This document shows positions 1,378 through 24,219 of a stretch of DNA of 24,459 nucleotides, piece after piece. Positions within the stretch are counted from its first letter, which is position 1; each line of letters opens with the position of its first letter. The position numbers and the translations under genes were made by a program. The DNA is taken from IMG/VR virus record IMGVR_UViG_3300049141_000022, positions 1 to 24,459 of that record. One strand, written 5' to 3'. Source of the DNA: a virus. Lineage: Duplodnaviria; Caudoviricetes. Under the pieces are notes generated by a model. That model was not told the DNA's origin, did not search any database, and saw only the letters and a program-made list of their open reading frames with translations.

Positions 1378-1602
1378 ATGAGCCGCCTCCACAGCTTCTA
1401 CGCGCGCGACTTGCTCGACAACAAGCAGGCCGCCGAGTACGCGGGAGTCGCCCCGTCCACGATCCGGCAGTGGGTCCATCGCGGCCTCCTTGAACCCGCC
1501 ATGCGCGGTGAAGGCCGAGGGGTGCCCACCTTGTACAACCGGCCCGACCTCGACGAGGTCAAGCGCATCCTGGCCGAGCGCGAAGCCGCCCGCGCCGCCT
1601 GA
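1378..1602 (+). CDS. Small MerR-like/HTH_17 (excisionase/BldC-fold) DNA-binding protein, 74 aa
   Basis: LLDNKQAAEYAGVAPSTIRQWVHRGLL..LY..DL helix-turn-helix pattern; start at ATG 1378 after AGGGGG. Confidence 0.8.
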   Translation: MSRLHSFYARDLLDNKQAAEYAGVAPSTIRQWVHRGLLEPAMRGEGRGVPTLYNRPDLDEVKRILAEREAARAA

Positions 1603-2098: not shown

Positions 2099-2380
2099 GT
2101 GGTCGGTAATCCCCGCAACGGGCGCCCCTACCGCCGCCTCGTCGACTGGCTCCGCTCGCAGCGGCTGCCGTGCTGGCTGTGCGGCCACAACATCGGCTAC
2201 GAGCTCGATGCCCGGCACCCGCTGTCCTTCACCCTCGACCATCAGGTGCCGCTGTCGAAGGGCGGGAACCTGCTCGACCCGGCCAACGCGCGGGCCGCGC
2301 ACCGGCGGTGCAACAGCAGCCGCGGCAACCGGACCACGCCGCCCAAGGTGGCACCGCAGCGAGCGTCACGGAGGTGGTAA
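2099..2380 (+). CDS. HNH endonuclease (HK97 gp74-like terminase cofactor)
   Basis: CWLCGH, TLDHQVPLSKGG and AAHRRCNSSRG motifs; located upstream of the cos/terminase genes. Confidence 0.92.
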   Translation: MVGNPRNGRPYRRLVDWLRSQRLPCWLCGHNIGYELDARHPLSFTLDHQVPLSKGGNLLDPANARAAHRRCNSSRGNRTTPPKVAPQRASRRW

Positions 2381-2766: not shown

Positions 2767-3204
2767 GTGCTGTACGTCGTCACCGGCCCTCCCGCAGCGG
2801 GTAAGTCCAGCTGGATCGAGGCGCACGCCAAGCCGACGGACATCGTCATCGACCTCGACCGCATCACGTCCGCGCTCACCGGACCAGGCGCACCGCAGTG
2901 GAGCCAGCACCCGCTGCACCTGCGGGTCGCGCACCGCGCCCGGTACGCGGCCATGGACGCAGCGTTCGAGCTGCTCGACCAGCTCGATGTCTACCTGATC
3001 CACACCATGCCGAACGGCAAGGCGATGGCGAAGTACAAGCGGCTCAAGGCACGCATCGTGACCGTAGACCCGGGCCAGGACATCGTTATGCAGCGCATCA
3101 AGGCGATGCGTTCCGTCGATATGGAGCGGGTCGCAACGCGCTGGTACAACGCTCGACGCCAGCTGCCGCATGAGGCCATGCCGCAGGCGTCCCGGTCCTG
3201 GTGA
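2767..3204 (+). CDS. Small P-loop NTPase (AAA_33/kinase-like)
   Basis: N-terminal Walker A VVTGPPAAGKS followed by IVIDLD. Confidence 0.85.
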   Translation: MLYVVTGPPAAGKSSWIEAHAKPTDIVIDLDRITSALTGPGAPQWSQHPLHLRVAHRARYAAMDAAFELLDQLDVYLIHTMPNGKAMAKYKRLKARIVTVDPGQDIVMQRIKAMRSVDMERVATRWYNARRQLPHEAMPQASRSW

Positions 3205-3225
3205 CGCGAGGTCACGTCGGGTGAC
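3201..3225. promoter_or_regulatory. 10-bp-phased GTGAC/GTCAC/GTGAC array forming two overlapping TNAC-N5-GTNA boxes
   Basis: GTGACgcgagGTCACgtcggGTGAC read directly from the sequence. Confidence 0.55.
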
Positions 3226-3317
3226 CTGGGTGGGGATGAGCCAGGCCGGAAGTGGCGGCGATCGGCCCTCGGTCAGTCCGATTAGGGGAGGGCTGGGTCG
3301 AAAGTTCAGAACGATAC

Positions 3318-3345
3318 CGGGCGACCCAAACGCCCTTGTCGCCCG
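3318..3345. other. Candidate cosN (cohesive-end cleavage site)
   Basis: Perfect 8-bp inverted repeat CGGGCGAC/GTCGCCCG around the 12-bp spacer CCAAACGCCCTT, in the non-coding gap before terS. It is preceded by GGGGAGGGCTGGGTCGAAAGTTC and followed by a T-tract. Confidence 0.6.
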
Positions 3346-3410
3346 ATTTTTTGCGCGGCCAAATCCTGCCGCTAATCACCGTGAACTCGGTTCGACTGAA
3401 TTAGTGGGCG

Positions 3411-3440
3411 GTCACTCTGTGTGATGTCACGCTGCGTCAC
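3411..3440. promoter_or_regulatory. Two abutting perfect matches to the BldD box consensus NTNACNC(A/T)GNGTNAN
   Basis: GTCACTCTGTGTGAT (3411-3425) and GTCACGCTGCGTCAC (3426-3440), ending 3 nt before the terS RBS GGAGGTG. Confidence 0.55.
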
Positions 3441-3453
3441 GGCGGAGGTGATC

Positions 3454-3729
3454 ATGAGCGTCGCCGACAAGATCGCCGCCGAGCTTGACGATCTTCACGC
3501 CGATGAGACTTCCCCCGGCATGGCGGCCGTCGCCCGAGCCCTGGCCCAGTCGATCGACGAGACGGAGGCCTTGACTGCGCGAGCGGTCGGCGCCGACAAG
3601 CTCCGCTCGATCATGGCCGACCTCCGCAAGCTCGCACCGGTCGAAGCGAAGGGGGACACGGTCGATGACATTGCTGAGCAGCGAGCGAAGCGCCGAGAAG
3701 CAACCCGCAAGCAGGCGGCCGGGCAGTGA
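3454..3729 (+). CDS. terS: Terminase small subunit
   Basis: RBS GGAGGTG then ATG 3454; short helical protein with an actinophage TerS-like pattern (ARALAQSID...LRSIMADL...DTVDDIAEQRAKRR), directly before and overlapping terL. Confidence 0.75.
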   Translation: MSVADKIAAELDDLHADETSPGMAAVARALAQSIDETEALTARAVGADKLRSIMADLRKLAPVEAKGDTVDDIAEQRAKRREATRKQAAGQ

Positions 3730-5191
3730 CGACGGCCGCGTCTACGGCTGGCAGCAGCCCCCGATCGAGACTGTCCCGCCGTCGGCATCGAGCGCCGGCC
3801 AGGAGGCCATCGACCTTGCTGCCCGGGCCGGCCTGAAGCTGGACCCGTGGCAGCAGTACGTGCTGCGCCGCGGGATGGGTGAGAAGCCGGACGGTAGCTG
3901 GGCCGCCTTCGAGTGCGTCGTCAACGTGCCGCGGCAGAACGGCAAGGGCGGCATCATCGAGGCCCGCGAACTGTGGGGTCTCTTCATCGGCGGCGAGCAG
4001 TTGATCCTGCACTCGGCGCACGAGTTCAAGACGGCGAAGGCCGCTTTCAAGCGTATCGAGCGCCTCATTCGCGGGTGTCCTGACCTGCACAAACGCGTGA
4101 AGGCGTACCGGTACACGGTCGGCGAGGAGTCGATCGAGCTGCACTCGGGGCAGGTGCTTCGGTTCATCGCCCGTTCGAAGGGTTCGGGCCGCGGCTTCAC
4201 CGGCGACTGCAACATCCTCGACGAGGACATGATCCTCGGTGACGACGCGATGGACGCGCTGCTGCCGACGATGGCGGCTGTCGAGAATCCGCAGATCTGG
4301 TACCTCGGGTCAGCGGGCATCGGCGCGTTGTCCGTGCAGTTGGGCCGTCTGCGCCGCCGGGCCCTGGCCGCGATCGAGGCGGGTGCGCCGGATGCGAGCT
4401 TGGCGTACTTCGAGTGGTCCGCGGACCTGCACCTGGACGAGTGCCCGAACGGCTGCACGGCGCACGATGACGCGGCCTCGGATGAGGCGGTCCTGAAGGC
4501 GAATCCGGCGGTCGGCTACCGGCTGACGCTGGACAAGGTGCACAACGAGCGGATGACGCTCAGCCCGGCCGGCTACGCCCGTGAGCGGCTCGGTGTGGGC
4601 GACTATCCGTCGGACGTGGCGGACACGTGGCAGGTGATCGGTGAGGACGCGTGGCGGGCGTTGGCGGCTGCGGAGTCGGAGCCGTCGGATCCGGTGGCGT
4701 TCGCGATCGACATGACGCCGGAGCGGTCGCATGCGGCGATTGCGGTGGCGGGGGAGTGGCGGGGCGGTACGCACGTCGAGGTGGTGGATCACCGGCCGGG
4801 CACGGGGTGGATCCTGGACCGGGCCGCGGAGCTGCACGAGAAGTGGAGGCCGCGCTGCTGGGTGGTCGACGCGGGCGGCCCGGCCGGCTCGCTGATCGCC
4901 GATCTGGCTGAGCGCCTCGGTGTCGAGGTGGTGCAGCCGAAAGCGCGCGAGGTGGCCGCGGCGTGCGGGCAGTTCTTCGACGCGGTGGCCGAGCAGACCT
5001 TGTCTCACCTCGATCAGGCGCCGTTGTCGTCGGCTCTGGCGGGTGCGCAAAAGCGCCCGCTGGGTGATGCGTGGGCGTGGGCGCGGCGGCTGGTGAGCGT
5101 GGATATCAGCCCGCTGGTGGCGGCAACGCTGGCGAAGTGGGGGCTCGGCGCTGAGGTCGAGGAGCCGGAGGGGGCGCCGAACCTATGGTGA
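3665..5191 (+). CDS. terL: Terminase large subunit
   Basis: LDPWQ adenine-binding motif, Walker A VPRQNGKG, GRGFTGDCNILDE Walker B, ANPAVG..RERLG, nuclease AIDMTPER and DISPLVAATLA. Confidence 0.96.
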   Translation: MTLLSSERSAEKQPASRRPGSDDGRVYGWQQPPIETVPPSASSAGQEAIDLAARAGLKLDPWQQYVLRRGMGEKPDGSWAAFECVVNVPRQNGKGGIIEARELWGLFIGGEQLILHSAHEFKTAKAAFKRIERLIRGCPDLHKRVKAYRYTVGEESIELHSGQVLRFIARSKGSGRGFTGDCNILDEDMILGDDAMDALLPTMAAVENPQIWYLGSAGIGALSVQLGRLRRRALAAIEAGAPDASLAYFEWSADLHLDECPNGCTAHDDAASDEAVLKANPAVGYRLTLDKVHNERMTLSPAGYARERLGVGDYPSDVADTWQVIGEDAWRALAAAESEPSDPVAFAIDMTPERSHAAIAVAGEWRGGTHVEVVDHRPGTGWILDRAAELHEKWRPRCWVVDAGGPAGSLIADLAERLGVEVVQPKAREVAAACGQFFDAVAEQTLSHLDQAPLSSALAGAQKRPLGDAWAWARRLVSVDISPLVAATLAKWGLGAEVEEPEGAPNLW

Positions 5192-23643: not shown

Positions 23644-24219
23644 ATGAGAATCGGATACGGGCGGGTCTCCACCCGCGACCAGAACCCCGACGCACAGGAG
23701 GACGCACTCACGGCCGCCGACTGCGACCGCATCTTCGTCGACAAGGCGTCCGGCAAGCTCGCCTCACGGCCCGAGCTCGACAAGGCGCTTATCGCCGCAC
23801 GCGAAGGCGACCAGTTCGTCATCACCAAACTCGACCGACTCGGCCGCTCACTGAAGAACCTCATCGAGCTGTCCGAGAAGCTGAACTCGCAGGGCGTGGC
23901 ACTCGTCGTCATCGACCAGGGCATCGACACGTCGACTCCGGTCGGCCGCATGTTCTTCCACATCCTCGGAGCCATCGCCGAGTTCGAGCACTCACTGATG
24001 GTCGAGCGGACGAAGGAAGGACTCGAAGCCGCGCGGGCGCGCGGCCGGACCGGCGGCAGGAAGCAGGCCCTCAAGCCCCGGCAGGTCTCCCTCGCGCAGG
24101 AGATGTACGACGAACTCGGCGATGACGGCAAACGCAAGCACACCGTGCAGGACATCGCCGACGAACTCGGCGTCGCCCGCACCACCATCTACCGGTACCT
24201 GGAGAAGAAGGAGAAGTAG
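23644..24219 (+). CDS. Small serine recombinase (resolvase/invertase family)
   Basis: MRIGYGRVSTRDQ (catalytic Ser), RPELDK, KLDRLGRS, AEFEHSLMVERTKEGLEAARARGRTGGR, C-terminal HTH IADELGVARTTIYRYL. Confidence 0.96.
   Translation: MRIGYGRVSTRDQNPDAQEDALTAADCDRIFVDKASGKLASRPELDKALIAAREGDQFVITKLDRLGRSLKNLIELSEKLNSQGVALVVIDQGIDTSTPVGRMFFHILGAIAEFEHSLMVERTKEGLEAARARGRTGGRKQALKPRQVSLAQEMYDELGDDGKRKHTVQDIADELGVARTTIYRYLEKKEK

Follow-up and report, generated by a model that had tools for sequence, protein, structure and literature searches.

The window analysed here, from a soil phage, is the whole of a lone 24.5-kb virus record with a head-and-tail module (IMGVR_UViG_3300049141_000022; 24,459 nucleotides). 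Its genes run in the order MerR-like helix-turn-helix (HTH) protein, HNH endonuclease, AAA_33 protein, putative small terminase (terS), large terminase (terL), portal, protease and capsid, with a gap of 250 bp between the AAA_33 gene and terS. In the window and its non-redundant relatives this gap holds four elements in order: a dyad predicted to be the cut site (cosN) of a cohesive-end (cos) packaging site, a T-tract, an imperfect palindrome, and two boxes of the type bound by BldD, a developmental repressor of Streptomyces that is gated by the second messenger cyclic di-GMP (c-di-GMP) (Table 1). These boxes are the subject of this analysis.

Table 1. Features of the predicted packaging region and its flanking genes in the window
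Feature	Position	Strand	Basis and remarks
Small MerR/HTH_17 DNA-binding protein	1378..1602	+	Pfam HTH_17 and MerR; rival binder, not favoured
HNH endonuclease	2099..2380	+	phrog_338 and PF01844
AAA_33 / polynucleotide-kinase-like protein, immediately left of cos	2767..3204	+	PF13671
Two overlapping loose boxes, weak and poorly conserved	3201..3225		Loose-pattern matches 3202-3214 and 3212-3224
Predicted cosN, 7-bp inverted arms; 12-nt core 3326-3337 = predicted single-stranded overhang	3319..3344		Near-invariant
Invariant T-tract element, putative TerS site	3345..3358		Conservation; placement like HK97 TerS site
Imperfect palindrome CTAAT...ATTAG	3372..3404		One copy in 44/98 loci, two copies in 18/98
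BldD-type box 1, GTCACTCTGTGTGAT	3411..3425		Strict pattern; host-matrix score 18.8
BldD-type box 2, GTCACGCTGCGTCAC	3426..3440		Strict pattern, 15 bp after box 1; host-matrix score 20.1
terS ribosome-binding site GGAGGTG	3444..3450	+	Sequence; conserved in relatives; ATG at 3454
Putative small terminase (terS), 91 aa, all-helical model	3454..3729	+	Position, conservation; model pLDDT 84
Large terminase (terL)	3665..5191	+	phrog_9, E 1e-78

The BldD consensus is a 13-bp pseudo-palindrome, TNAC-N5-GTNA (PMC4151990), and 12 of the 13 core bases of box 2 are identical to those of the box in the BldD crystal duplex described in the same source. A stricter pattern, TNACNCWGNGTNA, matches the window twice, at these two boxes, against 0.08 matches expected, and a count of two was reached in one of 100 shuffles. 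A preliminary description of this DNA had held that two exact boxes directly adjoin each other, 3 nt short of the terS ribosome-binding site, and that such adjacent matches are improbable by chance, and both statements are borne out. It had also placed boxes on either side of cos. In the window this bracketing is weak: the left pair lacks the S-W-S centre of the right boxes and takes in the upstream gene's stop codon, and on the host matrix described below its scores are 3.6 and 5.6. Because the loose TNAC-N5-GTNA pattern has five window matches where 2.17 are expected, the left pair taken alone is within chance. Bracketing does hold, however, in two other phage families.

The host of the window is probably Streptomyces, because the relatives of its TerL come almost entirely from that genus, the window itself being a lone virus record. 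Searched against GTDB genomes, the window TerL is 64-91% identical to its counterparts at 53 loci, 52 of them named Streptomyces; it is also matched by 80 viral contigs, and the closest isolate TerL in the phage collection, with none nearer, is 41% identical. BldD is present in all three Streptomyces genomes with relatives. Two non-Streptomyces genomes with a distant terL have no boxes, and both lack BldD.

Relatives were gathered as 139 loci (138 and the window), of which 121 had terS and upstream DNA, 107 of these a cos core, and 98 were non-redundant. The dyad is nearly invariant in 95 of the 96 aligned loci. Eleven contig starts were inspected, and three of these viral contigs (L100, L111 and L140) start precisely with its right arm; the deposited ends of Gordonia phage Eyre split a similar dyad in the same fashion. 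From these contig starts and the Eyre ends, the dyad is most likely cosN with a 12-nt overhang. The region thus has the marks of a cos-type site, with fixed termini and, between HNH and terS, a conserved dyad. The TerS of HK97 binds at an A-tract that lies 15-29 bp from the cut (PMC11331095), and by analogy the T-tract next to the dyad is likely to be the TerS site. Where the imperfect palindrome is duplicated, its copies interleave with the boxes; one locus, L393, has a cos of the window type and two such palindromes without a strong box. A candidate SOS box at 3383-3393 (GAAC-N3-GTTC) was rejected, since its spacer is wrong and GAAC-N4-GTTY is found in none of the 98 loci.

At least one loose box lies right of cos in 97 of the 98 non-redundant loci, and at least two in 75. 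Nearly all strict matches in these loci (88 of 91) fall within 200 bp right of the cos core, and adjacent boxes are 15 bp apart in 64 of 81 pairs. Left of cos, 16 of 95 loci have a loose box and none a strict one. The box centre is W in 173 of the relatives' 178 boxes. The central CWG that the preliminary description wrote into its consensus is present in both window boxes and in 88 of 178 family boxes (3 of 115 elsewhere), but it does not stand as the conserved feature; what is conserved is an S-W-S centre, a form that suits the host bldD operator as well, with the reservation that the host tandems were chosen as S-W-S and also vary. When viral contigs were scanned with the tandem pattern, 45 of 47 and 31 of 35 matches proved to be the window's phage family. 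The matches L202, L207 and L209 have no terminase match nearby and look unrelated.

We compared the boxes with the operator of bldD itself, at which BldD is reported to repress its own promoter (PMC5650626). In the three Streptomyces that carry relatives, two such boxes, 15 bp apart, lie upstream of bldD. The tandem S-W-S pattern with 15-bp spacing is found in 51 of 401 actinomycete genomes class-wide (0 with the reversed control), all of them, as the lists compared by eye indicate, within the 294 that have a BldD C-domain match; seven of the genomes counted carry an unpublished flag, and the 51 include none of these. Where host loci were fetched, the tandem lies 43-121 bp upstream of bldD in 27 of 30. 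A matrix built only from 26 distinct host tandems, which were themselves selected by pattern, has a training range of 13.9-21.7 and gives the window boxes 18.8 and 20.1, with the next best window site at 7.5. As these scores are within the training range, the base preferences of the boxes fit host BldD sites beyond the six core bases. The check that the preliminary description had proposed, a matrix scan of related cos regions against shuffled sequence, came out in its favour: 96 of 98 relatives have a site scoring at least 12, a cut-off of our own choosing, against 7 of 1960 shuffles, and left of cos 4 of 94 do. Five whole family records (37-42 kb) have sites of this strength at cos only. By sequence, the boxes are close copies of the tandem operator that precedes host bldD.

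Among the host loci, one 15-bp tandem (L345, G395:C131) precedes a gene for a probably secreted protein and not bldD, and is a candidate BldD target. The genomes with a BldD C-domain match, many of them small, extend more widely than the sporulating lineages, and one group has weaker matches (E about 1e-8 to 1e-19).

We then asked how the boxes are distributed among terminases and hosts. The class sample comprised 74 of 78 terL matches (two unpublished genomes, G001 and one duplicate were left out), 70 of them with enough upstream DNA. Sites of at least 12 lie upstream of the prophage terL at 8 of 34 loci from BldD-positive genomes and at 0 of 36 loci from genomes with divergent BldD or none (p = 0.002, a value driven by about four families, the surveys being phylogenetically non-independent). 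From the genus of G001, 80 of 91 terL matches were fetched, leaving out four already seen, two with short upstream DNA, one duplicate, two second halves of split genes and two others; 23 of the 80 loci are positive, compared with 6 among 240 shuffles and none among 80 coding controls, and these positives cluster in four clades.

Boxes near cos also occur in three other terminase families, in BldD-bearing hosts and with unrelated TerS, and the TerS of the four box-bearing families have no mutual similarity (E at least 0.2). Conversely, the Gordonia phages Eviarto and Kita, whose TerS are 51-61% identical to those of one box-bearing family, have junction scores below 0 and no boxes; according to PMC4255298, Gordonia and Arthrobacter lack BldD. 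Because the boxes recur across unrelated TerS and are absent with homologous Gordonia TerS, they point to a host factor, most likely BldD. In the L158 family 11 of 12 close members have a loose box, and of the 17 distant members one does. Across the full genome of phage phiSASD1, the highest-scoring site (16.1) lies 58 bp from the right end as deposited. The junction score of Eyre is 9.5, and those of Phishy, Auxilium and Mbo4 are under 6. Many Streptomyces prophages are without boxes, so BldD cannot be a general packaging requirement.

In phiC31 (L445), strong matrix sites at 37059 (16.7) and 37135 (17.2) stand around the start of gp26, far from cos, and could be repressor or BldD sites. The L422 (G304:C2) prophage has six loose boxes spread over both sides of a cos-like site.

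In summary, the boxes are a real, conserved and convergent element with the character of BldD-type operators at predicted packaging sites. Their match to the host operator, their host-linked distribution and the unrelated TerS beside them make BldD sites the most likely reading, and we regard binding of BldD to the boxes as probable.

Binding by BldD could serve packaging or transcription. In 73 of 96 loci the cos core and the first box are 86-91 bp apart. Between the last box and the terS start there are more than 35 bp in 20 of 96, two of which have an entire gene there. Two loci, L112 and L121, have an extra HNH-like gene between the boxes and terS, and their boxes remain beside cos. In the two other families with bracketing, 9 of 23 loci have a left box at 57-58 bp from the cos anchor, and 12 of 23 have sites of at least 8 on both sides of cos, a further 5 of the 28 loci being without an anchor. 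The -10 hexamer TAnnnT accompanies all 26 host tandems but only 5 of 64 phage tandems, and the promoter search found no sigma-70-type promoter, although it would miss an alternative-sigma promoter. A comparison of the boxes with upstream HNH genes (p = 0.63) carries no information, since its search pattern missed plain HNH genes. Because the distance to cos is kept, the bldD -10 is absent and no promoter was detected, we favour a role like that of IHF over repression. The IHF-like alternative raised in the preliminary description thus gains ground from the cos-anchored boxes and the missing promoter. Provided that BldD binds, a packaging role seems somewhat more probable than a transcriptional one; the compound claim, that host BldD at the boxes is an accessory packaging factor and not a promoter repressor, we advance as a tentative reading.

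Besides the non-independence of the surveys, the pattern-selected matrix with its chosen cut-off and the blind spot of the promoter search, several points weigh against this reading. BldD is a known promoter repressor (PMC4151990), and in 60 of 96 loci the last box is 11-15 bp from the terS start, just before the ribosome-binding site. Helical phasing of the left-right distances gave p about 0.01 on 12 values but falls short of significance on the eight distinct ones (about 0.24), and we make no claim of it; the family left boxes do appear phased (p about 0.002 on 19 positions, where overlapping boxes are 10 bp apart by construction). No DNA bending of the kind produced by IHF is known for BldD. 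Whole clades are empty in the genus of G001, 57 of whose 80 loci have no site of at least 12, and in the L168 family 11 of 73 loci have a loose box within 500 bp. Among isolates, the junction sites of Dubu (10.5) and Chymera (9.8) are weaker, and phiC31, Kromp and SV1 have junction scores under 5. Another host protein, MtrA, is reported on the same bldD promoter region (PMC5650626), and the window's own host is inferred from its relatives.

The alternative that survives best keeps BldD and reverses its effect: BldD would repress or roadblock terS and late transcription, or shield cos, until c-di-GMP falls. It draws on the same binding evidence as the packaging role, on the closeness of the last box to the terS start and to the start codon in the fourth family, and on the repression of BldD targets during vegetative growth (PMC4151990). 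However, the -10 hexamer is gone in 59 of 64 tandems, no promoter was found, the boxes remain with cos despite insertions before terS, and two families have left boxes. A vegetative block would also be costly for lawn-grown isolates such as phiSASD1, which has its strong box at the genome end. We therefore consider a negative role of BldD unlikely, and the block on terminase during vegetative growth that the preliminary description had put forward becomes the less favoured option.

Packaging assisted by BldD would work as follows. When c-di-GMP is high, two BldD dimers would bind the boxes about 90 bp right of the predicted cos, and the bound protein would help to organise the complex of terminase and cos in the way that IHF does at lambda cosB, so that cutting and packaging would be favoured in vegetative hyphae. 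The fall of c-di-GMP in sporulating hyphae would lessen packaging, and unpackaged phage genomes could then ride in spores, a proposal made by analogy to the entrapment of phi29 in spores (PMC9437464). BldD is active in vegetative growth (PMC4151990), and young mycelium was the stage most susceptible to phage in work on a phage outside the present set (PMC10117723). Assistance is favoured over blocking because a strict block at the phage-susceptible vegetative stage would be costly. The positive sign of the BldD effect is nonetheless the weakest step of the model. A wider version, in which several unrelated terminase families of Streptomyces cos phages independently tied packaging to c-di-GMP and BldD dimers on one or both sides of cos license the terminase, is conceivable but more doubtful. 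It would amount to a developmental checkpoint, gated by a second messenger, on the packaging motor.

The boxes might instead be read by another host protein, most plausibly MtrA, whose half-site is also GTnAC. MtrA footprints the Streptomyces coelicolor bldD promoter over the BldD sites, among them repeats one base closer than usual (PMC5650626). In Streptomyces venezuelae, by contrast, the bldD promoter was not footprinted, according to PMC13189361, which describes MtrA sites as direct repeats 11 bp apart. Tried on the sequence right of cos, this geometry of GTnAC direct repeats was rejected (N5 178, N6 2), although a shorter-spaced site is reported at bldD. MtrA is, moreover, conserved across actinobacteria, yet where the genome lacks canonical BldD none of the 36 loci has such a site. 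An identity of the binder as MtrA is thus improbable.

It seems to us similarly improbable that a protein of the phage, whether TerS, the MerR-like HTH protein or a BldD mimic encoded by the phage, uses the boxes as cosB-like sites. Such a protein would suit the fixed distance to cos, the lack of boxes at any other phage position and the HTH gene found upstream in 71 of 83 loci. Yet the same box accompanies four unrelated TerS families and is missing with homologous Gordonia TerS. The HTH proteins at the position of 1378-1602 fall into nine divergent clusters with a median identity of 29%, and the box consensus is unchanged across them; a BldD-like gene was not found in five family records. 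The window TerS is modelled as an all-helical bundle without an evident winged helix, a fold search with it returned generic helical bundles (best Z 7.2) and only weak matches to annotated small terminases, and the T-tract nearer cos suits an HK97-type TerS site. The TerS or HTH sites entertained in the preliminary description accordingly lose to a host factor.

A decoy is very improbable. Replicating phage genomes would titrate BldD and push the host towards development, with cos as the sole free intergenic space; tandem copies of a conserved host operator, in many genome copies, would offer many sites, but the offsets to cos are fixed in three families and other intergenic regions have no strong site. 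An RNA structure hiding the terS ribosome-binding site can hardly be credited: the window RNA can pair box 1 with that site, but folding is not significant (z = -1.1), the 64 tandems have no consistent covariation within or between boxes, access to the ribosome site is 0.24 against 0.27 in shuffles (59 loci), and there is no Rfam match. A hairpin or terminator was rejected on these grounds as well.

The HNH endonuclease is the customary terminase cofactor in cos phages, and in the window it shares a C-terminal motif, A-S-R-(R/S)-W, with the AAA_33 protein (2360-2380 and 3185-3204), which may be a terminase docking tail. Matches to the AAA_33 protein lie close to the right genome end in Gordonia, Rhodococcus and Mycobacterium isolates. 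The terL frame and the end of terS have 65 nt in common (3665-3729), an overlap that can be aligned in most relatives. Upstream of the HNH region, at 1265-1350, a TTGACC-containing palindrome is kept in many relatives, 1.3-2.2 kb left of cos; the window variant, at 1278-1290, is followed by a hairpin and is a candidate late promoter or operator. The palindrome scores -1.3 on the BldD matrix. A serine resolvase/invertase gene lies at 23644-24219, 3' of the lysis module.

We found no report of BldD sites at a phage cos in the accessible literature, a search that did not extend to subscription papers and tables from chromatin immunoprecipitation sequencing (ChIP-seq). Developmental regulators read at promoters (Spo0A, CtrA) and an architectural host protein at cos (IHF) are known separately. 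If our reading is right, a ligand-gated master regulator at the packaging site unites the two, giving Streptomyces phages a direct read-out of c-di-GMP. Judged from sequence, the developmental state of the host is likely to control the timing of virus-particle filling. How phages deal with the life cycle of Streptomyces, a standing question (PMC10117723), would become testable, and changes to c-di-GMP or bldD in industrial strains would be predicted to alter phage yield.

The arrangement can be set beside four known systems. HK97 has the same HNH-cos-terS-terL order as the window and an A/T-tract just right of the cut (PMC11331095); the accessible text on HK97 describes no host-regulator site. 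The window boxes are farther from the cut, at about 75-100 bp. The IHF site I1 of lambda cosB is, like the boxes, a host-protein site within about 120 bp of cosN, and it stands among TerS sites (PMC4669245) as the boxes stand among presumed phage-protein sites. The packaging module of the window phage, unlike that of lambda, is HK97-like and includes HNH, and its TerS is modelled without an evident winged helix. BldD, unlike IHF, is a second-messenger-gated developmental repressor and not a constitutive bender, and its packaging role is putative. With the Streptomyces bldD operator the boxes have in common the consensus, the 15-bp tandem and the centre; they differ in lying beside cos, with no overlapping -10 hexamer and no promoter found, and in that binding is predicted. 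Bacillus phage phi29, through Spo0A boxes, and alphaproteobacterial phages, through CtrA boxes, read a master regulator of host development as the window phage would here, plausibly to time lysis or to enter spores (PMC9437464). Those sites are associated with promoters, according to the same source, whereas here the strong sites are at the packaging site only and the host is Streptomyces; and BldD, unlike the regulators in those cases, is active before sporulation and not during it.
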